64,000 nucleotides of DNA, taken from assembly GCA_003140935.1 (NCBI GenBank), contig PLLJ01000039.1:76007-140006 (forward strand). The letters are read 5' to 3'. The position numbers were made by a program, and so were the translations under genes. The notes below the pieces were generated by a model that was not told the origin of the DNA, ran no database searches, and saw only the letters and a program-made list of their open reading frames with translations. Shown in pieces: positions 4,620 through 43,318 of this stretch. This stretch comes from Candidatus Omnitrophota bacterium (GTDB lineage Bacteria; Omnitrophota; Omnitrophia; Omnitrophales; Aquincolibacteriaceae). How positions within the stretch are numbered: the stretch's first letter is position 1; each line of letters opens with the position of its first letter.

Positions 4620-4630
4620 GGAGTAATCGC

Positions 4631-5083: not shown

Positions 5084-5096
5084 AACCCCCTCCTTT

Positions 5097-24511: not shown

Positions 24512-24517
24512 AGAAGC

Positions 24518-24545
24518 GGGACTCGGGACACGGGACTCGTGGCTC
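24518..24545. repeat. REP-like family C copy
   Basis: gcgggactcgggacacgggactcg. Confidence 0.5.
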
Positions 24546-25668: not shown

Positions 25669-25684
25669 ATCGAGTCCCGAGTCT

Positions 25685-25768
25685 CGCACTGGACCTCCCG
25701 ATAAAAATAAAAGGTTGTCGAGTGCTGCACTGGCTTCCAATAGAAATTTCAATGAGAGCCAAGCGAGT
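25685..25768 (+). repeat. Structured intergenic repeat family B, copy 2
   Basis: Hairpin gcactggac/gtcgagtgc plus core gctgcactggcttccaatagaaatttcaatgagagccaagcgag. Confidence 0.6.
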
Positions 25769-25801: not shown

Positions 25802-26959
25802 ATGTGCCCGGGTAACATGCTGGCTTTCGGGATGATGGCGGTCGTGATCGCCGTGGCGCTTGTGTCGCTCTTTTCCTACGTTGCGTCCGAAAAAAAATTC
25901 CGGGAAACACTGACGCTCGTCATGAGCGATCCGGAACTCCGGTGGAACGAGAAAGAACACAGGTTTCAATACAAGGACCTGGACTTCTTCTACAGAAAGT
26001 TTTCCGGGTCGCGCAACAGGCCGCCGTACTTTTCGGTTTCCGTGGTGTGTCAGGGGACGGGCGGGGGATTTGGGATCTCGAAAGAGGGCGGGGTGGAGCG
26101 TTTTTTCAAAGGGGTCGGCGTGACCCGTGAAGTCCAGACGCCGGAGGAGGAGTTCAACCGCAGGTTTTTTATCGCCTCCGACACGCCCCAATTCGCGCAG
26201 GACTATTTTGTGTCCGCGGAAAAACGGGAGGCGATGAGACAGCTTTTCGATGGGAAAGCCTCGACGGTCACGTATGGCGACCAGCGCGTGACGGTCACCT
26301 GGAAAGGGAGTTCCGCGCACACCGACGGCATCGCGGCGATCAAAAGCACTGCCGGGGCGCTGGCGGTCCTCGCCAAAGACATCCCTGCTTGCCCTGACCC
26401 TGCCTCTTCCGCCGGAACAGAAAGCGGCGTCTCTTCCAACCGCGTTTGGATGACCGGCCTCGCCGCGGGGTCCCTGGTGGCGGGCCTTGTCAGCGTGGTC
26501 TGGACTTCGGCGGGCTATCCCGTTTATGACGCTTGGCAGCTCTTCCTTTTTTCTTTGAAATTTTCCCTGCCGGCCCTGGCCGTTTTTTTATATTTCGCGG
26601 TCCTGACCCTGGCCGGGACTTCAAGGTCGCACAAGGACATTCTGCGGACCGGCTTTCTCGCGCTCGCGGGATTTCTGATGCTCGGGTGCGGTCTCACGGG
26701 CCTTTATAACGGCATGAAGGACACCTCACCGCCGGCGGGCCACACGGTGAGCATTCTGGACAAGCGGATCTACAAGTCCAAAAATTCCAGGACCTACAAG
26801 CTGATCGTCCAGTCCTGGAGACCGGGAAACGCCATTGAAGATCTTCCGACGAACCGGGGGACCTTTCAGCGGGTCGTCCCTGGAAAACACAAGGTGGTGG
26901 TCTACACCCGGCCCGGCAAACTCGGCTTTGAATGGTTCGTGACGTACCGGCTGTTGTAG
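25802..26959 (+). CDS. Hypothetical membrane protein
   Basis: N-terminal TM segment and three or four C-terminal TM segments. No recognised domain. Confidence 0.4.
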   Translation: MCPGNMLAFGMMAVVIAVALVSLFSYVASEKKFRETLTLVMSDPELRWNEKEHRFQYKDLDFFYRKFSGSRNRPPYFSVSVVCQGTGGGFGISKEGGVERFFKGVGVTREVQTPEEEFNRRFFIASDTPQFAQDYFVSAEKREAMRQLFDGKASTVTYGDQRVTVTWKGSSAHTDGIAAIKSTAGALAVLAKDIPACPDPASSAGTESGVSSNRVWMTGLAAGSLVAGLVSVVWTSAGYPVYDAWQLFLFSLKFSLPALAVFLYFAVLTLAGTSRSHKDILRTGFLALAGFLMLGCGLTGLYNGMKDTSPPAGHTVSILDKRIYKSKNSRTYKLIVQSWRPGNAIEDLPTNRGTFQRVVPGKHKVVVYTRPGKLGFEWFVTYRLL

Positions 26960-26974
26960 CCCTGAGAAGCGGGC

Positions 26975-27030
26975 CGGGACTCGGGACACGGGTAACGCAA
27001 GCGTTCCACGTTCCCCGAAAAAAAGGAGGA
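26975..27030 (+). repeat. Conserved 5' leader motif family D, copy 1
   Basis: gggactcgggacacgggtaacgcaagcgttccacgttccccgaaaaaaaggagg immediately upstream of ATG 27035. Near-identical copy at 38495-38606. Confidence 0.55.
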
Positions 27031-27034
27031 ACTT

Positions 27035-27256
27035 ATGAAGAGGCAGAACTTCAGGAACGTTTTTTTTAAAGGGTTGCGTTGGATGGTCCCTTGGCTGGTC
27101 CTTGCGGGCTGTGCGCATTCGCAGGATCAGGTCGCTTTAACTCCTGAAAAGAAAACCGAGGCGCAGACTATCGAGAGGGCCCAGTCGGACGATCGTCTGA
27201 CCCCTATGGAATCGGACCTTCAAAAAGACGCGCTCAGGCACCATATCAATTTTTAA
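27035..27256 (+). CDS. Small lipoprotein, hypothetical
   Basis: Signal peptide with lipobox LAGC. Confidence 0.35.
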   Translation: MKRQNFRNVFFKGLRWMVPWLVLAGCAHSQDQVALTPEKKTEAQTIERAQSDDRLTPMESDLQKDALRHHINF

Positions 27257-27269
27257 AAGAGGTTCTAGG

Positions 27270-27470
27270 ATGCGAATGATCCTGTTGGCAGTATGGGCTT
27301 TGACATTAAGCGGTTGTTGCGGTTCTCAAACGTCTGCGGACTTGCAGATGAGCCAGGACCAGGCAAAATTAACACGGATGTACCGGGAATGCATTGAGAA
27401 AAATCTGGGTAACGGGGAGGCCATGACGAAGAATTGTGAGCCGATCCTTGGCCCTTATGCCTCTCATTAG
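27270..27470 (+). CDS. Small lipoprotein, hypothetical
   Basis: Signal peptide with lipobox LSGCC. Confidence 0.35.
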   Translation: MRMILLAVWALTLSGCCGSQTSADLQMSQDQAKLTRMYRECIEKNLGNGEAMTKNCEPILGPYASH

Positions 27471-27500
27471 AGGCGCGGTTCACATAAGCGTGCGGAAGCC

Positions 27501-27851
27501 ATGATGAAAAAAGTCTTTTTTGGGATCTTGCTGATGTCCGGACTTATTTCTTTTGCTTTCGCGAGCATGGCTCCGGACAAGACGGATGATCCGGAGATGT
27601 CTCCGCCGTCGCAGAAAGAAATGCATAGCGTTCCTTCCGAAGAGGCGATCAATGCTTGCTCCGGAAAAGAGGAGGGGGCTACCTGTCATGTGGGTTGGGG
27701 AAGGGGAGGTGTTTGCCATTCTACTTCCGATAAGAAGTATTTTTCCTGCACGGCCAATAATACGTCTTCCGGCAGCAAGAATGATCCGGACGATTCCGGC
27801 AAGGAAAACGGAGTGACGGACCAGGACGGTCTCACCAAGGTTTCTTTTTGA
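27501..27851 (+). CDS. Small secreted Cys-containing protein, hypothetical
   Basis: Signal peptide. Acidic and Ser-rich with 4 Cys. Confidence 0.35.
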   Translation: MMKKVFFGILLMSGLISFAFASMAPDKTDDPEMSPPSQKEMHSVPSEEAINACSGKEEGATCHVGWGRGGVCHSTSDKKYFSCTANNTSSGSKNDPDDSGKENGVTDQDGLTKVSF

Positions 27852-27920
27852 TCGAAGGTCATCTCTTGCGTAAAGTGCGTCATTTTTGATAAATCCAGGT
27901 GAAAGGGTTTAAGGTTAAAA

Positions 27921-28697
27921 ATGTTTAAAGCCAAAATGCTGACAATTCTCGGTGTGTTTTTTTTATTTTTCATAATAAAAGTTTATGCCGATACGATTTA
28001 TCTTAAAAATGGTAATAGCCTGGAAGGGTTAGTAAGCAAAGAAGAAAAAGATAACGTTGAAGTAAACGTCGGCAATGGCGCGGTTGTTCTTAAGGCGAAT
28101 GAGATAGAGCGGATAGATCGGTCAACCCCCCAGGAGGTTGTTGAAATCAAAAAAAGCTGGGAAATAAACAAAGGCCAGAGTGAAAAGACAAAAGCCCAGG
28201 ATAGGGCGGAAAAGGAAAGAGCGTCGGAAAAATGGAACGCCATGGTAAAAGAAGAAATAAGCCGGGGAGAAGAAAGGCGCGATATCGATGCTAATACCAA
28301 GATCGTTCAAGCCGCTTCAGACAAGAAGGGGCACCTTTTTGTAAATGCCGTTGTGAATGAAGATGTCCATGCTTCGCTTATTGTAGATACGGGTTGCCCG
28401 GTCGTGCTTTTGACGGCCAGTATGGGCCGGAAGTTAGGCATTGATCTTGAGAATATTTCTGATGTGTACGAAGTCATGGTTTTAGATGGTAAGCATAAAG
28501 TGCGGGGAGTTTTATTAAAGAGCGTGAAATTAGGAGATCTGGAAGAAAAAAACATAAGAGCAGAAGTACTGCTTGAGGACAGCCAAGAAATCAAACACGG
28601 CCTTAAAGACGGCCTGCTGGGAATGTCGTTCTTAAAAAGATTTGATGTGACATTAGATCAGAAGAAAATGAAATTGTTTTTTAAACCCCATCCATAA
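27921..28697 (+). CDS. Retropepsin-like aspartic protease (clan AA, TIGR02281-like), secreted
   Basis: DTG active-site motif in LIVDTGCPVVLL, signal peptide, Lys/Glu-rich linker. Low-GC segment. Confidence 0.6.
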   Translation: MFKAKMLTILGVFFLFFIIKVYADTIYLKNGNSLEGLVSKEEKDNVEVNVGNGAVVLKANEIERIDRSTPQEVVEIKKSWEINKGQSEKTKAQDRAEKERASEKWNAMVKEEISRGEERRDIDANTKIVQAASDKKGHLFVNAVVNEDVHASLIVDTGCPVVLLTASMGRKLGIDLENISDVYEVMVLDGKHKVRGVLLKSVKLGDLEEKNIRAEVLLEDSQEIKHGLKDGLLGMSFLKRFDVTLDQKKMKLFFKPHP

Positions 28698-29070
28698 AAG
28701 TTCTTAGGAGCCTGCGCTCTTAGGGAATAAGAATAAGCTAACTTGCATGTGATAGGGTAATAAGGAAGCCGGAAAACAGGCACACCTTAATAACAACGTT
28801 TTTTGTAGTACTGACTTCAAAAACGGCATTCGGCTAAATAAAAGTTTTCTGGTCTGGAGGAGAGACCGGGCGTATACTTCCATCGATCAAGCACCCAACA
28901 GGGTAACATCGTCTTGATTTTTGTATCATCGGGGGCGGTTTCCTCTCAACGGGAACCGCCTTTTTCGTCTGCGCCGCTTTTGAAGGCGCTGAACGAATCC
29001 GCCAGAGCTTTGTGGCGGATAAGGGAACCGCCTTTTGTGTTTTTAAACCTTAAATTTAAGGAGGTGAACC

Positions 29071-30051
29071 ATGGCACATTTTTTCATGCTTCCCACGGAT
29101 GAGAACGGCGTGATCGCGGATCTGGATACCTTGAATATCGATTTGCCGATGGCATTGAAAGCTCCGTTCAATTTTTCCGAAGTATTCTTTTACTCGCACG
29201 GATGGTGGACGGACGCAACGGGAGCCATGAAGTCTTATAATAAATTCGGCATCGGGTTCGCGAAAACGATCGTCCAGGGCCTGGCGAACGCCGCCACTCT
29301 GCCTCCTCATCTTGCTGTCGGCATTCATTGGCCGTCCATGTTCAGCGAGGAGCCGTCTTCTCTGCTGAATAAAGTGGAACTGCTCAGTTATTGGACGATG
29401 GAGAAAAGAGCGGACAATGTCGGGGAAAATGCGGGCTATGCTTTCCTGAGGACCGTGCTGCAGAACAAACAGAAAAGTCTCCGGTGTATCAATTTGGTCG
29501 GGCACAGCTTCGGCTGCAAAGTGGTGCTTTCCACCCTGCAGGAGATGATTAAGGACAAACTTTCAACGAGGCTCCCGGTCAATGTCATCCTGTTACAAGC
29601 CGCCTGCGATGATGACGACCTGTCTCCGGATGATATTTACGGAAAAGTGGTCAAAGGTTTTCCCAATCTGCGGATGCTCATCACAACCTCAACGCTGGAT
29701 AAGGCGCTTGGAGAGCAGTACCCGATGGCCGGGAGGATCAACCTGTTTCACAGCGTCGACCGCAAAGCCCTGGGCGCCGTCGGGCCCATCGATAAGGTGA
29801 AAAAGCTATTTCCCAAAAAAGAAATAGGGCAAATCACAGTGGATGCCAAGTTTAACGCGAACCAGCAGGGGGTCGCGGATATTTTGAAACACAAGCTGGT
29901 GGTCGCGGACTTAAGCGCCATTCATGGATATCGTAACCGCACCAAAGGTCCGGACGGCAAACCCTTGTATGAAGCGGACCCGAATAGCGGCAGCCATTGC
30001 GATATCTATTTTGAGCAGCTGTACAGCCTTATAGCCAAATTCTTATATTGA
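29071..30051 (+). CDS. Alpha/beta-hydrolase-fold protein with GHSFG nucleophile motif (esterase/lipase-like)
   Basis: YSHGWWTD oxyanion-like region, LVGHSFGCKV (GxSxG) and a downstream Asp/His candidate. Family not identified. Confidence 0.5.
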   Translation: MAHFFMLPTDENGVIADLDTLNIDLPMALKAPFNFSEVFFYSHGWWTDATGAMKSYNKFGIGFAKTIVQGLANAATLPPHLAVGIHWPSMFSEEPSSLLNKVELLSYWTMEKRADNVGENAGYAFLRTVLQNKQKSLRCINLVGHSFGCKVVLSTLQEMIKDKLSTRLPVNVILLQAACDDDDLSPDDIYGKVVKGFPNLRMLITTSTLDKALGEQYPMAGRINLFHSVDRKALGAVGPIDKVKKLFPKKEIGQITVDAKFNANQQGVADILKHKLVVADLSAIHGYRNRTKGPDGKPLYEADPNSGSHCDIYFEQLYSLIAKFLY

Positions 30052-30095
30052 GAACTGGGGCCGTATAGCTTAAAAGCTATAAGGAAAAAGAGATC

Positions 30096-31016
30096 ATGAA
30101 ATATAGGAAACTTTCGGACCTGCAAAGGGACATTGAGACGCTGGAGGGGGATTGGGAGCTTTCGCCCGGGCATGAGCTGACGTATAAGGAACGCGGGCCG
30201 GAAAAAGAGGCGGGATTTACGGCCTCGCTTGTCGACTCAGAACCGGACGCGCTGGTGATCTCGGTGACGGTGCAGGAAGACGCGACGCATACCGTGACCG
30301 GGCTCGCGAAACTTTCCGGGAAATGGGAGCTCGATGAAAAGAACCGGATCACGTTTTCGCTAAAGCGGGGGCTCGGCAGGTACGACAAGCTCACTTTCCA
30401 GGGCGCCTGGGAGATCGATGAGAATTTCCGGGTGACTTACTCGCTCGAGACCCAAAGCATTCTGGAAGGGACCGGAAAAAAACGCCGGCGTGTGCAAAAA
30501 ACGACGCAGGAGCTTGTGTTCGAAGGCCGGTGGGACGTTTCGGAAAAGAACTGCCTGACGTATCAGATCGGCGTGGATTCGGAATCAACCTTCCGCTTCC
30601 GGGGTACGTTCGAGACGCAGAGCATGCTTGCCAAGGAAGGTGAGATCCGCTACCAGGTCGGTGTCGAGTTCACGACAAGCTTCGGCGAGACCCAGCGGGT
30701 GACGAAGACCATTTCCCTTTTCGGAAAATGGAAACTTTCCGATGAACTTGAACTTTCTTTCGAATTGGAATGCGCCGACGGGCGAAGGCCCGCGATCAGT
30801 ATGGGCATCGAGCTCGATCTGGAAAGGTTCCAGGAGCGCTGTCCGCTCCTTCCCGATCGAGTGGCCGTGAACCTGAAAAGCCGGGAGGGGGATCCGCTGG
30901 GTGTGGAGGTAGTCCTGACCAAGGACCTCTTTGAAGGGAACGTCCAGACCTTTGTCCGGTTCCGGGACTCCATGAAGGAGATCGCGATCGAGGCGGGGAT
31001 AAAGATACCGTGGTAA
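30096..31016 (+). CDS. Hypothetical beta-rich repeat protein
   Basis: Internal degenerate repeats (KWELDEKNRITFSL, RWDVSEKNCLTYQI, KWKLSDELELSFEL). Its 3' end is duplicated at 32925-33098. Confidence 0.45.
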   Translation: MKYRKLSDLQRDIETLEGDWELSPGHELTYKERGPEKEAGFTASLVDSEPDALVISVTVQEDATHTVTGLAKLSGKWELDEKNRITFSLKRGLGRYDKLTFQGAWEIDENFRVTYSLETQSILEGTGKKRRRVQKTTQELVFEGRWDVSEKNCLTYQIGVDSESTFRFRGTFETQSMLAKEGEIRYQVGVEFTTSFGETQRVTKTISLFGKWKLSDELELSFELECADGRRPAISMGIELDLERFQERCPLLPDRVAVNLKSREGDPLGVEVVLTKDLFEGNVQTFVRFRDSMKEIAIEAGIKIPW

Positions 31017-31280
31017 GCGTCCGGCGGAGATGAAGTGTGGCTGACTTCTCCACGAGGACGCCGTCCGGTTTACAAGTGTAGAGGGTCTGCTTTTTACAAC
31101 AAATCGAAAGGGGTGTTTTATGGCAAATCAAGAAGAACCTAAACAAAAACAAAAGAAAATGGAATTTAAAATTTTTGAAAATGGAAAACAATGCCGAGAA
31201 CCAAAAGAAGAACCTAAAAATTTAATAAGGCCTTCAGAACGAGATCAAGCGAAAAAGGAAAAAAAGGAAAATGAATAAAG

Positions 31281-31853
31281 ATGCCTGACACCCTGAACGG
31301 ATATCTAATTTTAGTTTTTCTTATTCTGCCTGGGTTTATCGGAATAAAGACCAAGCGGTTTATAGCTGCTTCTGAATCCGCAGATGCCTCGGAATTAATT
31401 CTGTCATGCGCTTTGTTCAGCAGCTGGAATTTCTTCGTTATGCTTTGGTTAATAAATCTTATTTTAAGCGAAAAATGTAATTTCTTTTTTGGATCCTTGG
31501 GGGTAATTTTAGTAGCTCCAGTTATTCAGGGGGTTCTTCTGGGTTTTTTGGAACGTTCCGAATCCATTTACTGGATAGCAGAGAAACTTAACATTCTTTT
31601 AGACATTAAACGAAAAACGGTATGGGATAGAGCTTTCTTTGGAAATAAACGGTGGGTTCGTGTTCATATGCCGAATGATGTAATCTACGAAGGGGTCGCC
31701 GTAATGCTTTCTATGGGAAGTGATAATAAAGAACTTCTTTTAAAAAACGTTGTTGTAATTTCTCCTGAGGGAAAAAAGGTCCTAGATTTGCAAGGCGCCG
31801 AGGGCGTGTTTGTGAATGCAAACGATGTTAAGGTAATTGAAATTTATAATTAG
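31281..31853 (+). CDS. Hypothetical membrane protein (N-terminal TM helices plus soluble C-terminal domain)
   Basis: Low-GC. Preceded by a 52-aa Lys/Glu-rich small ORF (31120-31278). No homology recognised. Confidence 0.4.
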   Translation: MPDTLNGYLILVFLILPGFIGIKTKRFIAASESADASELILSCALFSSWNFFVMLWLINLILSEKCNFFFGSLGVILVAPVIQGVLLGFLERSESIYWIAEKLNILLDIKRKTVWDRAFFGNKRWVRVHMPNDVIYEGVAVMLSMGSDNKELLLKNVVVISPEGKKVLDLQGAEGVFVNANDVKVIEIYN

Positions 31854-32028
31854 AAAAAAATGGCTGCATGGTTAGCCCCAAGAAAGAAGGCCATCCCTTC
31901 TTCGCTGTAGCAGCGAAGGACAAGCGCTTTAAAGAAGGTGAGTTGGATGTGCCAGCAATAATCGTTCCTTTAGCGCCATCCGACCAAACTCCGGAGCGAA
32001 TGGTAAGTTTTGGGCGAAAGGGGAAAAT

Positions 32029-32418
32029 ATGGATATTGAAAATATGGATATTTTTAAGGAAAAGGCATGGATCAAACTTTGGGAAGATGCCATGGCGCGG
32101 ATTGAAGCGCTGACGATCCGATTTTATGTATTAAAAAATCAGGAAGAAGTCCTGGAACAGATCGCAAAAAATACGGAACAAATGCCGGAGGCACACTTCT
32201 ATAAAAAGCAGCAAGCGATTATGAGGGTGACGCAAGAAATTACGACCGTGTGCGCCGAATTGAACGAGTCAGATAAAAAGTTTCAACTTCACGAGTGGGA
32301 AATCCAAAAAATCCGCGAAGAGATCACTCATATTGAATCTAAAATTTCTCCATTGATCCTTGAAAAAGTCAAAGAATCCTGGCTATTAACACAAACCGTA
32401 AACCGGAAGCCCTCTTAG
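32029..32418 (+). CDS. Hypothetical protein (helical)
   Basis: Low-GC ORF with a plausible RBS. No domain recognised. Confidence 0.35.
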   Translation: MDIENMDIFKEKAWIKLWEDAMARIEALTIRFYVLKNQEEVLEQIAKNTEQMPEAHFYKKQQAIMRVTQEITTVCAELNESDKKFQLHEWEIQKIREEITHIESKISPLILEKVKESWLLTQTVNRKPS

Positions 32419-32576
32419 GGGAGGCGTTGATTTTCATTACTGTCAGGACGTTACCCTCTCCCTCTGGACGGCGTCTGGTATACATCATGGAGAAAAAGGA
32501 AAATCGTTGGATGTTAGTGACAGTGTAAAACTTGTCTCAGCTAATGTTAACGAGACCTGCGGAAATAGGTGAAGAT

Positions 32577-32909
32577 ATGGCCAAGATATCTGATGTGACC
32601 TTTTCAGGGGAAAGCGGCCGTTACGCTTTTGAAGTTTATCCTATTAATACAGTATTCAGCGCCGATGGCGCGGTTTATGTTTTCAGTAAGCGCACAGTGG
32701 ATCCCAGCGGAAAAGGAACCCATCTATTGTTGTATTTGGGTCAAACCGATTCGCTGAAAGAGAGAATTCCCAACCACGAAAAATGGCCGTGCGTTATCCG
32801 TCATGGTACCAACTGTATTTGTATCCATCGGGATAACAGCGAAGAATCCCGTTTGGAAAAAGAAACCGATCTTCGGGCTGTTCACTCAACCCCGTGTAAT
32901 GATCAGTAA
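32577..32909 (+). CDS. Small GIY-YIG-like domain protein
   Basis: AVYVFSK...(x17)...LLLYLGQTDSLKERIPNHEKW resembles the GIY-x10/20-YIG...R...H...E/N pattern. Confidence 0.4.
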   Translation: MAKISDVTFSGESGRYAFEVYPINTVFSADGAVYVFSKRTVDPSGKGTHLLLYLGQTDSLKERIPNHEKWPCVIRHGTNCICIHRDNSEESRLEKETDLRAVHSTPCNDQ

Positions 32910-32924
32910 AAATGATGGGGTGTG

Positions 32925-33098
32925 GCGGGGCTGCTCGCTCAGATGACCGTGAACCTGACGAGCAAAGAAGGCGATCCCCTGGGCGTCGAACTGGTCCTGA
33001 CCAAAGACCTTTTCGACGGGAACGCCCAGACCTTTGTCCAGTTCCGTGAATCCACGAAAGAAACCGCCGTCGAAGCGGGAATCAAGATACCGTGGTAA
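32925..33098 (+). pseudogene. Duplicated 3'-end fragment of the 30096-31016 gene family (gene remnant)
   Basis: MTVNLTSKEGDPLGVELVLTKDLFDGNAQTFVQFRESTKETAVEAGIKIPW versus VAVNLKSREGDPLGVEVVLTKDLFEGNVQTFVRFRDSMKEIAIEAGIKIPW, about 80% nt identity. No upstream ORF body. Confidence 0.55.
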
Positions 33099-33294
33099 GT
33101 GTCTGGGTAACGTTGCTGACAAAGAAGGTCAAACGCAGTGCGTTAATAGCCGTTTACTCGAGGCAGGCCACGCCGTCAGAGTACGGAGCCGACCTTATGC
33201 TCCGACTCCGTGGTACTTGTATAAAGATACAAGTGCTATGCTGGTGAGGGAATGGAAGGGCCGTTTCTTTCAATTGAAATTACAGGAGATTATC

Positions 33295-34683
33295 ATGAGA
33301 GAAATGTTTGAATATCTTAAAGCTCGCGAGATTTTAACAAAAAAAGGCCCAAATTTTAAAAAGCTTAAAAAGCTTAACCCTGCTCAGACTCTTAACATAG
33401 TAGAAAAGTTAGTCGAACTTGGGAGGCAATCGTCTAAAATTCCAACAGCCTCACAATTTACTCACTTTGCTTCCCTCTCACTTGGCGGTGGAAAAGAGGC
33501 TTGTTTTAATCCCGCATGTAGAATAAATCGTTTGGACTCGCTGATGCGTTTTTCTTTGATGTATAGCGACCAAGTTTTTATCCCAAATTATTTTTTAGAT
33601 TATGATCGATATAAAAAAAGCGGCAAAATATCGGCCGATAGTCTTGCGACCCAGTTTATAGCAGATATTATTACTTTTGCGCATATGCTGCCGTTAGTCA
33701 CGGCTCAAAAAATATCTATTTTTACTCCTCAAACACACATATGCCCTTCTTGCCTAGCAGAAATGAATTTTGGGAAAGGGGCCTCTGGACGCATGGAACG
33801 TTTATCCGCAGAACTTAGAAAAGAATATTTGTCGAACTCGAAAGTGAATCTCGAATTTAATAACGGAGAGTATCGTTTGGGTTGCTCTGGCCCAGAGCTT
33901 TATTTTGAGCATGGCGGTGGTTCCATTGGCTTTGAAAAAATGCCATCGTTGCTTGCTAAAAACAAAAAAATCTTAGAAATAGCAAGACGCCACGGGGCAA
34001 TCTCGTTATCAAAAAAGATGGTTGAAAAAATAGGCGCGATAGATGGATTTTATGTGGGGAACATTGTGCGAAATATGTGGTATGAAATGGCCGCCACACA
34101 AGCATTACATACATCTTTTCTTACCGATCGTGATATAGACGTTCTTTTTCTGGAAAAGTTGACTAAGAAAAAAGATGTTTTGGATAACAATAAACTAGCT
34201 CTTCAGTACTTAACATCCGAGGTTCCTTTTTTGCGAGACGTCGCGCTAAAGGATTTAATTGAATTAAGAAAACATGAAGAAGATGCCTTTGTTCTTTATA
34301 GGCATGCATTGAATCGGGCTATTTCTGAATTTAAATCAGCTAAACAATCTTTAACCGCAAAAGATGCAAAAGGAATTTACTCTGATATCCTGCAGCCGAG
34401 GCTGTCTAAATTGGATCAAACTGTAAAAGCAGCTGTGCACTCTTTAAAAGTTAAGCCTCTTCGCTCCGCTCTTGCAGCCGTAGGCGTTATTTCTTTCGGA
34501 GCGTTTGCGGGCTTTCTTCCTGCCGAACTTAAACCACTCATACAAGCATTTGGTGCAACCTTGGGAGGGACTACTTTTTTAAAAGATCTTCTCGCAATGA
34601 AAGACGGCGAAGATTCTATCAAATCTGACAATTTATATTTTTTATGGCGCGTTAAAGAATTAAGTAAAAAACACAAATCATAA
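33295..34683 (+). CDS. Large hypothetical protein (463 aa), first gene of candidate three-gene module
   Basis: SD AGGAG. Low-GC. CPSC pair possibly a Zn ribbon. No recognised family. Confidence 0.45.
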   Translation: MREMFEYLKAREILTKKGPNFKKLKKLNPAQTLNIVEKLVELGRQSSKIPTASQFTHFASLSLGGGKEACFNPACRINRLDSLMRFSLMYSDQVFIPNYFLDYDRYKKSGKISADSLATQFIADIITFAHMLPLVTAQKISIFTPQTHICPSCLAEMNFGKGASGRMERLSAELRKEYLSNSKVNLEFNNGEYRLGCSGPELYFEHGGGSIGFEKMPSLLAKNKKILEIARRHGAISLSKKMVEKIGAIDGFYVGNIVRNMWYEMAATQALHTSFLTDRDIDVLFLEKLTKKKDVLDNNKLALQYLTSEVPFLRDVALKDLIELRKHEEDAFVLYRHALNRAISEFKSAKQSLTAKDAKGIYSDILQPRLSKLDQTVKAAVHSLKVKPLRSALAAVGVISFGAFAGFLPAELKPLIQAFGATLGGTTFLKDLLAMKDGEDSIKSDNLYFLWRVKELSKKHKS

Positions 34684-34812
34684 AAAGCAAAAATCTTTCA
34701 AATGCCAAGTAGAACAGTACCAATCACCTCGGAGGGCACGTAAGCGAGCCAAGAGTAACCGATCCTTTGGTGCGCTGTCCCTTACACAATAAATTAAATT
34801 CTAAGGAGATGT

Positions 34813-36003
34813 ATGAGCAAACCCAATCCAGACTATCGCGAAAATCCATTACGAGCCATTTTTCTTGTTGGTGAAATAAATCAGCAACTAGTCAATAAGC
34901 TTACCCCTGAGATTCTGCGTTTGCGACACGAATCAGACAGTCCGATTACGGTTTACGTCGACAGCATTGGGGGGAGTGTTTATTCAGCTGAACTTATACG
35001 TAATTTAATAAAGGCGCAAAAGCAAAATGGAACAACCATTAGGCTTGTGACGGTAGCAACCGGAATGGCAGCCAGCGCTGCCGCCGACTTTCTCATTTTG
35101 GGTGATTATCCCATCGTATATCCTCATACTCGAATCATATATCACGGAACACGCCGTACTGCGCCAGATGAATTAACGGTAGAAACGGCGTCTTCAATCA
35201 TTCAAAACTTACGTCAAACTAATGAGAGATTTGCTGCGCGTCTAGCGCGAGTCGTATTCAAAAGGTTTGTTTCTCGAATAATTTCATTTAAAGAACAATT
35301 TCAAACCTATATAAATTCTAAAGAAAGCGGAGACATAAAATCACTAATCGATACTCTTATCAAAAATCTTTCTGAGGATGCGATTCGGTTGGTCAGAAGA
35401 GCGGGGAGCATGCAGGAAAAGATGTCCGAGCTTTCGAAGACTGTGATGCAGTCAATTAGGAAAAGGAAAAGGCCGCTAGATAACGTTCATTTTGAAATAG
35501 AGGTGCTCAAAGGAGTGCTGCATTATCAGCAAAAGGAACTCGTTAAAAAAAAGATTTTACTCAGTGATGGCGAACTGAATAACATTTCTATTATTTTTGA
35601 AGCATTAATGGATTACCACTTCGGAGGACACCGTGGTTTCATGGCGCCATGGATTCGAAGATTCGGCGCCCTATTTCTTTCAGAGGAAGAAAAACAAGTT
35701 TATGAAAAATTGCCATCCGGTCAAGTTAAAGAGAATCAAAAGTGGCTGAGGGAACATACGGCAGAAAAAATTCGACCACTTTGGTATTTTATCGTTTCAG
35801 CTTGCCGCGAGTTACAAACCGATGATTATGAATTAATGCCGGAAGATGCATTTTGGCTGGGGCTGATAGATGAGATTCTGGGCTCGGATTTGCCTTGTGA
35901 GAGGATGTTTTATGAAGAAGCCTCTGAAGAGGGCAAGGTAGCGGAACAATCAAAAGTTCTTGTTCCATCTGGACCAACTCGTAGGGATGCCAAAAAAGCG
36001 TAA
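34813..36003 (+). CDS. ClpP/S14-like serine peptidase domain fused to an uncharacterised C-terminal domain
   Basis: N-terminal 150 aa aligns to ClpP (PITVYVDSIGGSVYSA~YINSPGGVITAG, GMAASAA~GQAASMG Ser, IIYHG~MIHQP His). C-terminal 240 aa unknown. Confidence 0.6.
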   Translation: MSKPNPDYRENPLRAIFLVGEINQQLVNKLTPEILRLRHESDSPITVYVDSIGGSVYSAELIRNLIKAQKQNGTTIRLVTVATGMAASAAADFLILGDYPIVYPHTRIIYHGTRRTAPDELTVETASSIIQNLRQTNERFAARLARVVFKRFVSRIISFKEQFQTYINSKESGDIKSLIDTLIKNLSEDAIRLVRRAGSMQEKMSELSKTVMQSIRKRKRPLDNVHFEIEVLKGVLHYQQKELVKKKILLSDGELNNISIIFEALMDYHFGGHRGFMAPWIRRFGALFLSEEEKQVYEKLPSGQVKENQKWLREHTAEKIRPLWYFIVSACRELQTDDYELMPEDAFWLGLIDEILGSDLPCERMFYEEASEEGKVAEQSKVLVPSGPTRRDAKKA

Positions 36004-36046
36004 ACCGGACGCCGTCCGCATTTTAAAAACAAAGAGGTTAAGACCT

Positions 36047-36922
36047 ATGCCGACCCTAGTTTTTATAGACACTAATATCTTTCTGGATTTCTACAGGATA
36101 CCTGTTGGTTCGGTAGCAATGTCTTTTTTGGAAGACATTAATCGCAACCATGCAAAAATTATTACAAGTGATCAAGTTCATATGGAATTTAAAAAGAATC
36201 GACAAAAAATTATCTTGGATTCGCTTAAGCAATTTAAAAACACCAACGCTGCGGAGATGAAATTACCGGCCTTTTTGATGGAGTCAAAGCAAGCGCATGG
36301 TCTTGAAAAAAACAAAAGACGCATTTCGCAACACATCGCTAATCTTCAAAATCGCGTCGAACGTCTTTTGCAAAAACCAAATATTTATGATCCTGTTTAC
36401 AAGGTTCTTCACCGGCTTTTTTTAAATAATAGCGATTTGAATCTCACGAGACGAAAAAGCATACGGCATTCCATCAGGCATATGGCAAGGAAACGTTTTA
36501 TGTTGGGGTACCCACCAAGAAAAGCCGATGATTTAGCGATTGGTGATGCAATAAATTGGGAGTGGATCGTTCAATGCGCAAAAACAACCGCGCACGATGT
36601 GGTTTTGGTTACTCGTGATACGGATTATGGCATCATTCGGGATGGAAAAGGTATTTTAAATGATTGGCTTCGGTTGGAATTTAGAGAACGTGCAGGCCGT
36701 AGAAGAAAGCTGTTTTTAACCGGCAGGTTAGCGGAAGGATTTAGAACAGCCTCAATAGCGGTTCCCCGTCAGGTTGCCAAAGAAGAAGAAAATCTGGTTA
36801 AAACGATAAAGCCATTACCCGATGAAGATACCAATTATCGTTCAATAATGTTAGGCGAGTTGAAAAAATACTTAAGCCTAACTGGTGAAGGCGGAGCTTT
36901 TTCAAGTGAAACAAAAAAATAA
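36047..36922 (+). CDS. PIN-domain nuclease with C-terminal extension
   Basis: LVFIDTNIFLDFY canonical PIN N-terminus, with later conserved acidic residues (TSDQV, TRDTD). Overlaps the upstream gene end. Confidence 0.65.
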   Translation: MPTLVFIDTNIFLDFYRIPVGSVAMSFLEDINRNHAKIITSDQVHMEFKKNRQKIILDSLKQFKNTNAAEMKLPAFLMESKQAHGLEKNKRRISQHIANLQNRVERLLQKPNIYDPVYKVLHRLFLNNSDLNLTRRKSIRHSIRHMARKRFMLGYPPRKADDLAIGDAINWEWIVQCAKTTAHDVVLVTRDTDYGIIRDGKGILNDWLRLEFRERAGRRRKLFLTGRLAEGFRTASIAVPRQVAKEEENLVKTIKPLPDEDTNYRSIMLGELKKYLSLTGEGGAFSSETKK

Positions 36923-36993
36923 AAAATCAGTGTAAAGCGTAAACCAGGCATCTATTCGAGAGAGGGTCTCCAGCCACCTTAAAGGAGGTTAAA

Positions 36994-37302
36994 ATGACTA
37001 TCCGAGGGATTTTTAAATTTTACGGAAACGAGATGGATACTGATCATATGCCAAAGAAATACCATGTTTATTTGGTCTATTCTTCTCCTCATCCATCTAT
37101 TGGTATGGATGGATATAGTATCGTTTCAATTTTGCAATCAACAATTCGTACACCTATGCCCAAAACATATGAATATGCTATTCAGAAAGAACCAGAAAAG
37201 GCGATCGAAGAAGTTTTCAGCATTATCGCTAATTTAAAAGAAAATAAGGGATTGGCCTCAATAAAGGTTTTGGAAGAAGTTAAAGACCGCGGGTCTAATT
37301 AG
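36994..37302 (+). CDS. Hypothetical protein
   Basis: Low-GC ORF flanked by similar 19-23 bp direct repeats (36949-36967, 37323-37345). Confidence 0.35.
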   Translation: MTIRGIFKFYGNEMDTDHMPKKYHVYLVYSSPHPSIGMDGYSIVSILQSTIRTPMPKTYEYAIQKEPEKAIEEVFSIIANLKENKGLASIKVLEEVKDRGSN

Positions 37303-37412
37303 AAGAACGCAAATAGCTTATGCATAAGCCAGGCAGCGTTCTATTCGTGTAAATCAGACATCATACAGTTCCGCATCAATAAGGAGCCGCGAAGGAACGG
37401 GAGGTTCGTGCC

Positions 37413-38489
37413 GTGACGAACAAGTTGACGCCCAGCCGCTATAAAGAAATCCTTGCCGACGTCATCCGGCTTTTCAAGAACGTGGAGCATTCCCTGGTCA
37501 CGGCCTACTGGAAGACCGGTCAATACACCGTGGAGATCGAACAGGACGGCGAACCCCGCGCCGCCTATGGTGACGGCATCATTCACAAATTTTCCGAAGA
37601 ACTGACCGAAAACCTGGGACCGGGATTTTCCGTCACGAGTCTCCGGCGGATGCGCCAGTTTTATCTGGAAAACCGAAAACGCGCACCGGTGCGCGAATTG
37701 TCCTGGAGCCATCACGTCGTACTCATGCCGGTCACCGATGCCAAAGTACGCAAGGCCCTGGAGCAGAAAGCGGTCCGGGAAGGCCTGACCCGGGATAATC
37801 TCCGCGTTCTGGTCCGCCATGAAGCCGTGCGGGCGCAGGTCGCCGCTCAACTGAGAGCGCGGGAATCGGGACTAGGGATTCGTAAGGAGTTACTGAAAGT
37901 CCCGAAGCTGGGGCTTTTCGACACCTGCCGGATCAAGGACCCCAACGAAACCCCCTGGCCTGACAAGAACGTCCTGCTCCTGGACCACGGGTTCAAAGGC
38001 TACCGCGCCCTGATGCCCGCAGAAGCCCGCGGCCTGAAAGCCGGGGACATCGTCGCGTGGACCGGCGTGAAACTTGTGAAGAACGGCCGCACGGCCCAGG
38101 ACCTTTTCACTTACCGGGCCTATCTCGAGAGCGTGATCGACGGGGACACGCTCTGGGTCATGCTGGATACCAATATACGAGGGGCCAGCCGCCAGAAGCT
38201 GCGGCTCCGGGGGATCGATTGCCCCGAGATCAATACCGAGGAGGGAAAGAAGGCGAAACAGTTCGTGGAAAAGGTCCTGAAAGGCGTCCCGTCCCTCACC
38301 GTCCTGAGCAGCAAGAACCCCACCTTCGACCGCTACGAAGCGGATGTGTTTTTCCTTCCGGTACGAAGCCTCAAAGCTTCGACCGGAGGTACTGGAACCA
38401 AAGGGGACCAGTGTTCAAGTGACAAAGAGGGAAAAGAGGTCTACCTTAATAACCTGATCCTCGAGAACGGATATGCCGTTAAAGTATAA
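37413..38489 (+). CDS. DUF1016_N (YhcG-like N-terminal domain) fused to staphylococcal-nuclease-like (SNase) domain
   Basis: N-terminus has RELSWSHHVVLM (YhcG_N hallmark). C-terminus has DGDTLWV...RLRGIDCPE SNase motifs. GTG start with GGGAGG SD. Confidence 0.55.
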   Translation: MTNKLTPSRYKEILADVIRLFKNVEHSLVTAYWKTGQYTVEIEQDGEPRAAYGDGIIHKFSEELTENLGPGFSVTSLRRMRQFYLENRKRAPVRELSWSHHVVLMPVTDAKVRKALEQKAVREGLTRDNLRVLVRHEAVRAQVAAQLRARESGLGIRKELLKVPKLGLFDTCRIKDPNETPWPDKNVLLLDHGFKGYRALMPAEARGLKAGDIVAWTGVKLVKNGRTAQDLFTYRAYLESVIDGDTLWVMLDTNIRGASRQKLRLRGIDCPEINTEEGKKAKQFVEKVLKGVPSLTVLSSKNPTFDRYEADVFFLPVRSLKASTGGTGTKGDQCSSDKEGKEVYLNNLILENGYAVKV

Positions 38490-38494
38490 CTGCC

Positions 38495-38606
38495 GGGACT
38501 CGTTCCTCGGGACTCGGGACACGGCACTTAACTCAAATAATGCGGGGAACGGCAAACGGGTAACGGGTAACGCAAGCGTTCCACGTTCCACGAAAAAAAG
38601 GAGGGA
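38495..38606 (+). repeat. Conserved 5' leader motif family D, copy 2 (with internal insertion)
   Basis: gggactcgggacacgg[40-nt insert]gtaacgcaagcgttccacgttccacgaaaaaaaggagg before ATG 38610. Confidence 0.55.
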
Positions 38607-38609
38607 TCC

Positions 38610-38972
38610 ATGACTCAAAAGATCCTTGTGATCGATGACGAACCCGATCTTCGTCAGCTGGTTGAACTCCGGTTAAGGAAAAACCAATATGAGACCCTTG
38701 GCGCGTGTGACGGGAAGATGGGCCTTGAAATGGCCGGACGGGAACATCCGGATCTCATTCTCCTTGATGTCATGATGCCGGTCATGGATGGGATCGAGGC
38801 CCTCCGCGCCTTAAAACAGACTTCCGAAACAAGCGCCATTCCCGTGATCATGCTTTCACAGAAAAAAGAAACCAGTTTGATCATGAAGACAGCGGATATG
38901 GGCGCTGCCGATTACATCCCTAAACCATTTCTGGCTGAAGATCTATTGAGGTCCATCAAGAGGAACATTTGA
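38610..38972 (+). CDS. Single-domain response regulator (CheY-like)
   Basis: ILVIDDEPD, LLDVMMPVMDG and K in IPKP. Confidence 0.7.
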   Translation: MTQKILVIDDEPDLRQLVELRLRKNQYETLGACDGKMGLEMAGREHPDLILLDVMMPVMDGIEALRALKQTSETSAIPVIMLSQKKETSLIMKTADMGAADYIPKPFLAEDLLRSIKRNI

Positions 38973-39023
38973 AGTCCATCAAGAGGCACATCGCTCAACT
39001 TAAGTCATTCGGGGAACGCCTGG

Positions 39024-39109
39024 CTCTCATTGAATTTTTATTGAAAACCAGTGCAGCACTCGACAACTTTTTCATTTTTTTATTGGAAGTCCAGTGCGGT
39101 GAACGATGA
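39024..39109 (-). repeat. Structured intergenic repeat family B, copy 3 (inverted orientation)
   Basis: Reverse complement matches the 25685-25768 core and hairpin. Confidence 0.55.
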
Positions 39110-39276
39110 ACGAAAATAAAGCGGGACTCGGGACTCGTTCCTCGGGACGGTTTCGGCGAGATTTTGCACTTGCCGCTCATTGCGTCAAGTACGGCCTGTG
39201 GGAATTCGGATATTCCCTACTGGCCGACAATCTCGTCCGATCCACGCTACACGGGGTTAAAGCAACCAAGGAGTCG

Positions 39277-39724: not shown

Positions 39725-40030
39725 ATGAATATGAAAATGGCGATGATCCTGGGACTGGCGTTGCTGCTCCTTCCCTGCGGGCGGCTTCTCGCGTGGGACA
39801 ACAGCGCGAGGACGGAAGAGATCTCCGCCAAGGCGGAACAGGCCAGGGAAGACGTCCGCAACATGCAGTCGAAGGTCAATGATCTGCAAGAGCAGATCCA
39901 CCGGCTGGAGGACAAGATCAGCTCCAGGGATTCCAAGCTGGAGGCCTTGGAAAGACAGGCGAGGGAGCAGGCCGCTTTGGAACGGCGGGTGAGGCCCCTG
40001 GAAGGCGCGCGCGAAGAACGCAAAGAATAA
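39725..40030 (+). CDS. Secreted coiled-coil protein (paralog 1)
   Basis: Signal peptide then coiled-coil heptads. 70% identical to the downstream paralog. Confidence 0.4.
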   Translation: MNMKMAMILGLALLLLPCGRLLAWDNSARTEEISAKAEQAREDVRNMQSKVNDLQEQIHRLEDKISSRDSKLEALERQAREQAALERRVRPLEGAREERKE

Positions 40031-40081: not shown

Positions 40082-40429
40082 ATGAACATGAAAAGAACGA
40101 TGATGATCCTGGGACTGGCGTTGTCGCTCCTTCCTTGCGGGCGGGGGTTCGCGTGGAACGACAGCGCGCGGATGGACGCGATCGCCTCCAAAGCGGAGCA
40201 GGCCAATGAAGGCGTCCGTAACATGCAATCGAAGATCGATGACCTGCAGATGAAGATCAACCGGCTGGAGGACAAGATCAGTTCCCGGGATTACAAGATG
40301 GAGGCCTTGGAAAGAAAACTGAGGGAACAGGACACTCTGGACCGGCGGGTCAGGGCCCTGGAAGACGCGCGCGAAGACCGCAAACTCCCCACACAAACCA
40401 AGACCCTCCCCGGCAAGCCGAATCCTTAA
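40082..40429 (+). CDS. Secreted coiled-coil protein (paralog 2)
   Basis: SD AAGGAG. Tandem duplicate of 39725-40030. Confidence 0.4.
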   Translation: MNMKRTMMILGLALSLLPCGRGFAWNDSARMDAIASKAEQANEGVRNMQSKIDDLQMKINRLEDKISSRDYKMEALERKLREQDTLDRRVRALEDAREDRKLPTQTKTLPGKPNP

Positions 40430-41572: not shown

Positions 41573-43318
41573 ATGAAAGAAAAGAATTCTCCGCAACCGG
41601 GAGTATCCCTGCAACAAAAAATAGCCCTGGTGGTTTTGGGCCTATGCTTGTCTCTGGTGCTTCTTGAAACGGGAATGCGCCTGGGCGGGTTTGTCCTGTC
41701 ATCGATCCAAGAGTATGGGAATTTACAGTCCATCAAACAAAAGGGCGCCTACCGTATCCTCTGCCTGGGGGAGTCCACGACCCAGGGACAATACCCCCAA
41801 CGTCTCGAGCAGATCTTGAACCAACGCAATGCCGGAGTGCGTTTCAGCGTTATCGATAAAGGCCTATACGCCACAAACTCTTCCGCCATATTAAGCCGAG
41901 TCGGACCCTATTTGGACGAGTATCATCCCGATATGGTGATCGCCATGATGGGGATCAATGATTGGGGGAAACATATGCCCTTGGAGGTCCCTACGACTTC
42001 GAAAGGAACGCTTTTCATCCGGTCGTTCAGGGTTTATAAGCTGATGCGGCTTCTTGAGCTGCATCTCTTGAAGAAAGCCGGGGAGATGGGGTTTTATAAA
42101 CCTGACGAGGCTAGACGAAGTTCTTGGAAGGCTCAAACCCCTGTTCCCAAAACCGGCCCCAGAGAATCCTCTGCGAAGGCTATTTCAGCCGGAGGATCAT
42201 TCCAGAACACAGCCTTCATCAAGACCCAAGAGATGAGGTCTTATAAACCTGAAGTGGATGAACGAAATCCCGGGAAGGCTCAAATTCCTCTTCCGGGGAC
42301 CGGGTCAAAAGAAACTTCTGCGGAGGCTGTTTCGATCGAAGAGCCATCGAGAAAGGCTACCGGGCCGAGTTCCCCAAACGATAAGGTTTTCGTTGATGTT
42401 GGGAAGGCTCAACGAGACCAAAGCCCATACCCACAGGACGAAAACTCTCTCAAGAGAGCTGTCGAGCGAGATCCTAAAAATTATGAGGCCTACCGCGCAT
42501 TAGGGGGGTTTTATCAGGATCAAGGCAAATTACCCCAAGCCGAAGCCTCTCTCCGGAAGGTCGTCGAGCTTGATCCGAAGAGCGCTCCTGCCTACGTTCA
42601 CCTCGGGACACTTTTTCAGCTGCAAGGCAAATTTTCCCAAGCCGAAACCTCTTTTAAAAAAGCCATCGAACTTAATCCGGAACAAAGTGAAGCCTACCGT
42701 GGGTTAGCGGAGCTCTATGAAGGTGGTCACACCGGCAAGGCGGAAGTGATGTTTAAGAAAGCCATCGAGGTTGATCCTAAAAACTTTGAAGCTTGCCTTG
42801 ATCTGGGATGGCTCTATCGACGGCAGAAAAGATTTCTGGAAGCCGAGGAATTCTTCAAGAAAGCCATGGAGCGGAGCCGTCTCCAAAATGACGACGACGG
42901 CTACTCGAGGGGCCGCACATTGAGGACCATGGCGTCTTTATACGAAGAAATGGGTAAACCCGGGTTGGCAAAAGAATATGTTCAAAAGATAGCCGGGCCG
43001 GGATTAGAGTGTTATCCGGTTACCCTTCACAACTATCGCAAGCTTAAGGAAACCCTGGATCAAAAGGGAATCAAACTGGTTTGTATGCAGTATCCCATGC
43101 GAAAGGTGGAAACACTCAAGAGAATTTTCGGGAGAAACGAAGGCGTTATTTTTGTCGATAACGAAAGCCTGTTCGCGGAAGCGGTGAAGAAAGGAAGTTA
43201 CAAGGAGTATTTTAAAGATATGTTCGCCGGCGACTTCGGCCATTGCACTCAGAAAGGCAACGAGCTTTTAGCTCAAAATATCGCCGCTGTGATCCTCAAA
43301 GAAGTATTTAACCAATAG
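41573..43318 (+). CDS. Membrane-anchored SGNH/GDSL-like hydrolase split by TPR repeats (paralog 1)
   Basis: N-terminal TM helix. CLGESTTQG (block I-like), central TPR repeats, C-terminal GDFGHCT (DxxH block V). Confidence 0.5.
   Translation: MKEKNSPQPGVSLQQKIALVVLGLCLSLVLLETGMRLGGFVLSSIQEYGNLQSIKQKGAYRILCLGESTTQGQYPQRLEQILNQRNAGVRFSVIDKGLYATNSSAILSRVGPYLDEYHPDMVIAMMGINDWGKHMPLEVPTTSKGTLFIRSFRVYKLMRLLELHLLKKAGEMGFYKPDEARRSSWKAQTPVPKTGPRESSAKAISAGGSFQNTAFIKTQEMRSYKPEVDERNPGKAQIPLPGTGSKETSAEAVSIEEPSRKATGPSSPNDKVFVDVGKAQRDQSPYPQDENSLKRAVERDPKNYEAYRALGGFYQDQGKLPQAEASLRKVVELDPKSAPAYVHLGTLFQLQGKFSQAETSFKKAIELNPEQSEAYRGLAELYEGGHTGKAEVMFKKAIEVDPKNFEACLDLGWLYRRQKRFLEAEEFFKKAMERSRLQNDDDGYSRGRTLRTMASLYEEMGKPGLAKEYVQKIAGPGLECYPVTLHNYRKLKETLDQKGIKLVCMQYPMRKVETLKRIFGRNEGVIFVDNESLFAEAVKKGSYKEYFKDMFAGDFGHCTQKGNELLAQNIAAVILKEVFNQ

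Follow-up and report, generated by a model that had tools for sequence, protein, structure and literature searches.

Probable Separate Insertions of Low-GC DNA among Native Genes at a Variable Locus of an Omnitrophota Genome

Introduction

Does a sharp drop in GC-content over a run of protease and nuclease genes mark a single acquired defense island, or several events at the same place? This question is raised by a locus of Candidatus Omnitrophota bacterium (NCBI GenBank assembly GCA_003140935.1, contig PLLJ01000039.1, positions 76,007 to 140,006 of the forward strand). The 64,000 nucleotides (nt) of this interval are referred to below as the window, and all coordinates are counted from its first letter. 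An earlier sequence-only reading had described one low-GC accessory or defense island at about 27.9–37.3 kb, embedded in a high-GC chromosome.

According to the present analysis, the region probably represents at least three separate foreign insertions into a hypervariable hotspot, lying among native genes and accompanied by stumps of displaced ones. It is neither a single island nor a recognizable defense system, and accessory regions of this kind are already well known. New here are the lineage, several uncharacterized gene families and two unexplained repeats.

Composition of the Region

In 1-kb sliding windows, GC-content fell from 0.58–0.62 at 22–27 kb to 0.44–0.48 at 27–29 kb, was 0.51–0.55 at 29–31 kb and 0.39–0.46 at 31–37.5 kb, and returned to 0.59 at 37.5–38.5 kb. 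The drop described earlier was thus confirmed, as was its right border at about 37.3–37.4 kb. Its starting level of about 60% GC holds for the immediate flanks only, the mean of the whole window being ~0.54–0.55. High GC on both sides was found for 37.5–38.5 kb and for the membrane-protein gene on the left (GC at third codon positions, GC3, 0.75), but the response-regulator gene to the right of the region has a GC-content of just 0.49.

Gene composition was compared with a baseline of 40 non-overlapping background open reading frames (ORFs) outside the region (GC3 0.656 ± 0.075). Eight genes deviated in GC3 by z = −2.5 to −4.6: those for a retropepsin (0.43), a DUF6338 protein (0.36), a 129-amino acid (aa) coiled-coil protein (0.47), a 125-aa protein (0.43), an orphan protein designated u481 (0.34), a ClpP-like protein (0.37), a PIN_12 nuclease (0.36) and a 102-aa protein (0.31). 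Synonymous-codon log-likelihood deviated in six of the eight (z = −1.9 to −3.2), but not in the coiled-coil gene (+0.2) or the retropepsin gene (−1.2). Three further genes were host-like and lacked the composition expected of an island: those for a hydrolase (0.64), a 306-aa protein (0.72) and a DUF1016_N protein fused to a staphylococcal nuclease (SNase)-like domain (0.72). The composition shift is therefore real and well outside the background scatter, but patchy.

The low-GC DNA consists of three blocks of ~1.0, 1.9 and 4.2 kb: block 1 (27862–28826), block X (~31045–32930) and block Y (~33184–37412). The separators are the host-like hydrolase and 306-aa genes on the left and two gene remnants on the right; the latter account for a GC blip of 0.55 at 32.9–33.2 kb. 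The sequence-only reading was right about the drop, but the stretch is not one uniform segment, and its single embedded island resolves into at least three low-GC insertions that alternate with host-like genes and remnants. All genes of the region lie on the + strand.

Searches with Pfam, NCBIfam and PHROGs detected no integrase, recombinase or transposase in the region. There is no tRNA gene at its borders, the sole tRNA gene of the window (Ser) being located at 2526–2614; the earlier statement that integrase and tRNA genes are missing from the borders is correct. A search for structured RNAs gave no Rfam family at 24–41 kb, and promoter and terminator scans gave counts no better than chance.

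Comparison with Related Contigs

To the left of the low-GC DNA lies the gene for a 385-aa membrane protein without a Pfam family (25802–26959, +), the last gene whose synteny is shared by all relatives compared. These relatives are contigs, none of them the complete genome of a close relative. Amino acid identity of the membrane protein was 82% on contig L103, 78% on L102, 69% on the P0045 contig and 66% on L101, and nucleotide identity of the flanks was 86–87% for L103 and 85% for L102. A membrane-protein homologue of 66% identity occurs in an NCBI Candidatus Omnitrophota metagenome-assembled genome, in the same aconitase/acyltransferase/membrane-protein context. Scanning of genome contigs with the aconitase gave a best match of 65% identity and no close relative, and a metagenome scan with the membrane protein gave no matches.

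To the right of this anchor, every relative is arranged differently. In L103, a DUF1016_N-SNase gene starts 27 nt after the membrane-protein gene. In L102, the same position is taken by an ORF6N gene, followed by an orthologue of a 73-aa window gene, a Peptidase_MA_2 gene and an orthologue of a 116-aa window gene. On L101 and the P0045 contig, the position holds sulfatases, or TPR and hemerythrin genes. Neither these two contigs nor L103 have block X or Y at the locus. Conserved synteny of the same gene block in all relatives was thus not observed, and these differences identify the locus as a hypervariable hotspot.

In the window, the anchor is followed by three small genes whose products are secreted or lipoprotein-like (73, 66 and 116 aa; 27035–27851, +), with a near-host GC3 of 0.57–0.63. 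The 73-aa and 116-aa genes have orthologues in L102 (85% aa, 89–91% nt). We regard all three as lineage-native and as lying outside the low-GC DNA.

For block 1, L102 shows a clean empty site. According to blastn (89–90% identity), positions 6233–6588 of L102 align to 27503–27858 of the window and positions 6587–6646 to 28832–28891, where the L102 contig ends. The ~965 bp between these alignments (27862–28826, +) are absent from L102 and contain only the retropepsin gene and its own flanks. The block is flanked on the left by the 116-aa gene's stop codon and on the right by a conserved hairpin, and no target duplication is evident at its junctions in this alignment. The encoded protein (27921–28697), a secreted aspartic protease of clan AA, combines a signal peptide, an LA_0442/LA_0875-type N-terminal domain and a C-terminal DTG protease domain containing a VDTGCP motif. 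It scored 69.2 bits against TIGR02281 (cut-off 57.95) and also matched PF13975/PF13650, in agreement with the earlier designation as retropepsin-like. For blocks X and Y, the comparison with relatives yielded only absence from the locus, not a clean gap. Together with the GC3 and codon deviations, the absence from the closest relatives upholds the view of the low-GC DNA as foreign accessory DNA.

The arrangement is not an assembly artifact: in independent ENA, JGI and Logan assemblies, which stem from several samples, conspecific contigs were 100% identical across the region, save for an 8-bp deletion in contig L087, which indicates an arrangement fixed in a clonal population. An empty site was also sought among conspecific contigs with identical anchor proteins; all of them are clonal and carry the region.

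Gene Remnants and Block X

The host-like pair to the right of block 1 comprises two genes. The first (29071–30051, +) encodes an alpha/beta hydrolase with a GHSFG motif, assigned by Pfam to the DUF900/DUF726 type and correctly recognized as a hydrolase before. The second (30096–31016, +) encodes the 306-aa repeat protein, which has no Pfam model and belongs to a family of 357 representative clusters. In L087, representing one conspecific population, this gene is frameshifted by the 8-bp deletion (GGGAAATG, window 30318–30325), suggesting that it is dispensable.

The 3′ end of the 306-aa gene takes part in a 176-nt direct repeat (78% nt identity) formed by 30849–31024 and a diverged copy at 32931–33106. 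The latter contains the end of a diverged 306-aa-gene homologue, namely its last 52 codons and stop codon (32940–33098, +; 75% aa identity), in frame through the same stop codon. A second stump is located 16 nt past the first. It comprises the last 24 codons of an L103-type DUF1016_N-SNase gene (33112–33183, +) and encodes VADKEGQTQCVNSRLLEAGHAVRV, the C-terminus of such a protein. Its identity to the 3′ end of the L103 allele is 75% at the aa and 83–84% at the nt level, versus 48% aa to the SNase gene of the window itself. Since the nt value is close to the 86–87% of the syntenic flanks, this stump is probably the remainder of a displaced native SNase allele. Where one gene remnant had been noted before, two were found, and together they divide the right-hand low-GC DNA into X and Y.

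The full-length SNase gene of the window (37413–38489, +) is of high GC and encodes a DUF1016_N domain (PF17761, 6.5e-25) fused to a staphylococcal-nuclease-like domain (PF00565, weak). Its identity to the L103 gene of the same architecture is 33% aa, compared with 82% for the flanking genes. If the stump derives from the native allele, the present gene would be its replacement; we consider it a variable allele of the hotspot that resembles defense candidates. The L103 protein (4410–5684 of that contig) has an N-terminal extension of ~85 aa with a signal-peptide-like start (MKKRMILGIFIALIFMVPATLQA), which the window allele lacks.

Block X, bounded by the 306-aa gene and the stump of its homologue, contains four ORFs on the + strand (GC3 0.36–0.47). 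The first, a Lys-rich ORF of 52 aa (31120–31278), occupies most of what had been taken for an AT-rich spacer at 31020–31280. It is followed by genes for a DUF6338 membrane protein (31281–31853; PF19865 at 2.4e-16), for which a literature search found nothing relevant, the 129-aa coiled-coil protein (32029–32418) and a protein of 110–125 aa (32532–32909). A GIY-YIG identity had been proposed for the last. Its likeness is at the motif level and by eye (VYVF...YLGQT); sequence searches found no GIY-YIG family in Pfam at E ≤ 10 and no PDB relative, and the assignment was dropped.

Several observations weigh against the reading of the region as a series of insertions into a hotspot. A clean empty site exists for block 1 only, and the absence of X and Y rests on L103 and on distant relatives whose locus is otherwise rearranged too. 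The conspecific contigs, being clonal and 100% identical, reveal no presence/absence polymorphism within the species. No target-site duplications and no donor lineage were identified, and the mechanism of insertion is inferred. In addition, a 64-nt repeat placed around 11.6 kb and a recurrent 18-nt motif hint at an unexplained organization.

Repeats and Alternative Units

The 64-nt direct repeat, designated D2, occurs at 26975–27038 (+), in the leader and ribosome-binding site of the 73-aa gene, and at 38550–38613 (+), in the leader of the response-regulator gene (38610–38972). The copies are 84% identical. If they were attachment-type ends, the whole of 26975–38613 would be one island of ~11.6 kb, inserted at D2 by site-specific or Campbell-type recombination with a recombinase acting in trans or since lost. 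The exact 25-mer core GGGTAACGCAAGCGTTCCACGTTCC is indeed present only twice in the 64 kb, once on each side of the DNA between the membrane-protein gene and the response regulator, and DNA homology between L102 and the window ends at 26970, 4 nt before the left copy. However, the bracketed DNA is heterogeneous in composition and encloses native genes: the 73-aa and 116-aa genes and a further 60 nt (28832–28891) are 89–91% identical to L102 and in the same order. L102 also lacks D2 upstream of its 73-aa orthologue, and no integrase is present. As D2 sits in gene leaders, where it overlaps both the ribosome-binding site and the start codon of two genes, it may represent a scar of recombination, a regulatory leader that was duplicated, or an att-like site. 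We consider a single insertion at D2 unlikely.

The second repeat is a GC-rich 18-nt motif, GGACG[CG]CGTC[CT]GGT[TA]TAC, located at 31056–31073 (+), 32466–32483 (+) and 36000–36017 (−), with a degenerate inverted copy at 32398–32423 (−). Three matches were found versus 0.07 expected in the window, a significance that is overstated because the pattern was derived from the same data. The motif was found nowhere else in the window and in none of the loci of other organisms. Its copies form two inverted pairs (31056+/32398− and 32466+/36000−) and all stand at gene boundaries, which suggests for X and Y a common origin or a shared site-specific function. It is conceivable, though doubtful, that the two blocks are modules resembling cassettes and that a trans-acting recombinase recognizing the motif moves them. 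An integrase-less system of this sort in Omnitrophota would have a loose parallel in pdif modules or integron cassettes. The host-derived stumps lie inside the second inverted pair, which speaks against simple cassettes, and separate insertions remain the preferred reading.

Other repeats were observed in the surroundings. An element of ~85 nt occurs in inverted orientation at 25680–25765 (−) and 39020–39100 (+), 13.3 kb apart and around the variable segment. It contains an internal ATTGGAxGxCCAGTGC sub-repeat, and in L102 (4060–4150) it directly follows the membrane-protein gene. The heptamer CGGGAC[TA] has 24 copies in the window versus 2.4 expected; those inspected are intergenic (e.g., 24517–24543, 26975–26987, 38508–38527 and 39122–39134). 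Runs of CGGGACT beside D2 were considered as a border of the region and rejected, as the motif occurs window-wide, mostly between genes. Two local tandem duplications lie immediately to the right of the hotspot: a 283-nt direct repeat (83%; 39742–40024 and 40102–40384) that covers two small adjacent ORFs, and two adjacent TPR-GDSL-lipase paralogues (41573–43318 and 43386–44909) that share a 493-nt stretch at 86%. Far to the left, a 74-aa ORF (16447–16671) with, by eye, an excisionase/MerR-type helix-turn-helix lies alone in a low-GC intergenic patch (~0.46, 15.5–17 kb) and may have been left by another mobile element.

Block Y and the ClpP-like Family

Block Y (33184–37412, +; GC3 0.31–0.37) contains four co-directional genes with intergenic gaps of 129, 43 and 71 nt. 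The first encodes u481, an orphan protein of 481 or 462 aa depending on its start (33238 or 33295 to 34683). Only three homologue clusters were found for it among 5.8 billion proteins, all on contigs too short to show neighbors, and its AlphaFold2 model was poor.

The second gene (34813–36003, +) had been read as ClpP-like, which Pfam confirmed (PF00574, 6.6e-15). Profile alignment placed residues 12–111 on ClpP 31–128 and residues 337–359 on ClpP 177–199. All 32 family members compared share Ser88 (in AASAAAD) and His111, and an Asp or Glu of the family aligns with the catalytic Asp of ClpP, so both the fold and the triad are represented. The AlphaFold2 model was confident (pLDDT 90, pTM 0.85), and its only PDB matches were to the head domains of ClpP (Foldseek E 1.6e-9, TM-score 0.6 relative to the target). 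The remainder of the protein includes an all-helical insert of ~225 aa, for which no PDB match was found among the best 50, all of them ClpP chains. The protein did not reach the cut-offs of ClpP families (NCBIfam scores of 22–53 bits versus 228–361); it is 396 aa long, and the insert replaces the handle. It should therefore not be called ClpP; it is probably an active serine protease that combines the ClpP fold with a novel insert. Family members are 380–430 aa long.

Genomic context of this family was examined from 40 full-length homologues and 90 loci, comprising 80 metagenome loci, four viral loci and look-up contexts. In 84 loci there was enough upstream sequence to show a small ORF. Directly upstream of the protease gene, 73 of the 84 have one with the motif [YF]-[GN]-x-D-[LTV]-x-[AS]-[FY], and nine more have one of a second class with an EDWSFL motif (82/84 in total). 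The ORF is 45–75 aa long (e.g., 5776–5985 in L094, 5776–5982 in L106 and 2977–3177 in L157, from the loci L094–L187). By its recurrence in these loci, the pair looks like an undescribed two-gene module; that it is an unrecognized two-gene conflict module is conceivable but doubtful. Neither class of small ORF precedes the gene of the window (compare 34684–34812), whose copy would then lack its partner. The C-terminus of u481 ([ED][DN]LYFLW) was considered as a fused version of the small ORF and rejected, as hidden Markov models of both classes miss the u481 family.

Among 23 non-redundant loci, no recurring partner other than the small ORF was found. The neighbors included a type III restriction enzyme, SspH, caspase-like proteins, a PIN/MazE pair, IS1595 and IS1 transposases, TniB and a CI-type repressor. 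Two of the 23 have an AAA+ gene of the Clp type (Clp_N, AAA_2) just upstream; the window copy has none. The protein had no plasmid match, and a literature search for it in connection with anti-phage activity found nothing relevant.

The third gene (36047–36922, +) confirmed the earlier PIN assignment, as a PIN_12 nuclease (PF16289, 4.7e-24; 86 bits versus a gathering score of 32). By inspection, its acidic motifs are FIDTN, at the N-terminus, and TRDTD. A homologue on a Pseudoalteromonas plasmid is 44% identical and solitary, and PIN_12/DUF4935 genes are reported to be usually monocistronic and of unknown function (PMC5499597).

The fourth gene encodes the 102-aa protein (36994–37302, +). It is exactly bracketed by a direct repeat, TAA[AG]CCAGGCA..TCTATTCG (36925–36995 and 37303–37373), and may therefore be a separate small insertion inside block Y. 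Short direct repeats near the right end had been noted previously; they exist but are imperfect, with ~19 matching bases and a 4-nt indel.

With its four co-directional genes, uniformly low GC3 and short gaps, block Y might be thought a single new multigene defense system in which a protease is coupled to a nuclease effector. Protease and nuclease pairings are common in conflict systems, and this background favors such a system. The context of the homologues points elsewhere. In a tblastn search with every protein of the region, no other region protein was found in the 90 ClpP-like loci, and an operon of u481, ClpP-like, PIN_12 and 102-aa genes conserved elsewhere was rejected on the same zero co-occurrence. 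The protease instead pairs with its small upstream ORF, PIN_12 genes are typically solitary, the block has no PADLOC matches, and the few homologues of u481 offer no neighbors to compare. Such a system is improbable. Given the lack of co-occurrence, the cargo genes look like independent accessory modules rather than parts of one machine, as far as gene context can tell.

A decayed prophage or integrative-element remnant has still less in its favor, and we give it only a slim chance. The N-terminal domain of the ClpP-like protein weakly matches profiles of phage head-maturation proteases, four IMG/VR contigs carry homologues of it, one beside a CI-type repressor, and L102 has an antirepressor-type ORF6N gene at the same hotspot. 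On the other hand, PHROGs detected no capsid, portal, terminase or tail gene in the region, its matches being limited to weak ones with ClpP-type proteases and a single family without known function, and an integrase is missing as well. DUF6338, u481 and PIN_12 have no relatives on viral contigs (the other block X genes were not scanned), and the helical insert and small upstream ORF of the ClpP-like family are unlike prohead proteases. That the low-GC genes are simply native with unusual composition, as their fixation in all conspecific contigs and the lack of mobility genes would allow, is very hard to reconcile with a GC3 shift of 2.5–4.6 standard deviations, the clean gap in L102, the absence at the locus from L103, L101 and the P0045 contig, and the gene remnants at the block borders.

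Defense Content

Defense genes were searched for with PADLOC-DB v2. No complete known anti-phage system was found, and only single-domain matches were obtained: the retropepsin matched PDC-M08B at 1.6e-7, without the A component, and the N-terminal domain of the SNase fusion matched PDC-S02 at 1e-27. The defense label of the sequence-only reading is therefore unproven. From gene content, a role in conflict or defense is nevertheless plausible, considering the nucleases and proteases, the apparently rapid replacement of the SNase allele and the hotspot behavior.

Discussion

Taken together, the data suggest the following history. The hotspot lies just downstream of the conserved aconitase/acyltransferase/membrane-protein block. 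At least three lower-GC pieces (~1.0, 1.9 and 4.2 kb), none bearing a recombinase, would have been inserted there among lineage-native genes, most likely by recombination at the hotspot after DNA uptake. These insertions would have left stumps of displaced residents, namely the 3′ ends of the 306-aa-gene homologue and of the native SNase allele.

The locus is a well-bounded case of accessory-gene turnover at a hotspot in an uncultured and little-studied Omnitrophota lineage, proceeding with no mobile-element machinery of its own; its history can be read from the stumps of displaced genes. It offers candidates for conflict and defense biology: the helical-insert ClpP-fold family with its small ORF, the domain swap in the DUF1016_N-SNase gene and the orphan 462-aa family. 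Current understanding is not overturned; the value of the locus lies in annotation and hypothesis generation.

Among individual genes, the PIN_12 gene is solitary, as reported for the PIN_12/DUF4935 family (PMC5499597), and shows no notable difference from it. The ClpP-like protein resembles ClpP (S14, PF00574) in its invariant Ser and His, the acidic residue at the Asp position and the head-domain fold. It differs in length (396 aa versus ~200), in the replacement of the handle by the helical insert and in belonging to a family normally paired with a 45–75-aa upstream ORF. The 37413–38489 gene is closest to PDC-S02, a DUF1016/YhcG-type single-gene candidate, many models of which match its N-terminal domain. 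Its C-terminal nuclease is staphylococcal-nuclease-like (LRLRGIDCPE), not the usual PD-(D/E)XK of DUF1016 proteins, and PDC-S02 is itself only a defense candidate.

Integrase-less accessory and defense hotspots between core genes have been described in enterobacteria, Pseudomonas and Vibrio. The present locus is unlike them in its Omnitrophota-like uncultured lineage, in the interleaved native genes and in having no validated defense system; to our knowledge, the 64-nt D2 repeat and the 18-nt motif have no counterpart in such hotspots. It resembles them in occupying a fixed spot beside core genes, in cargo that varies by relative and in atypical composition, as well as in nuclease and protease genes with defense-candidate domains, the lack of mobility genes of its own and the remnants left by earlier occupants.

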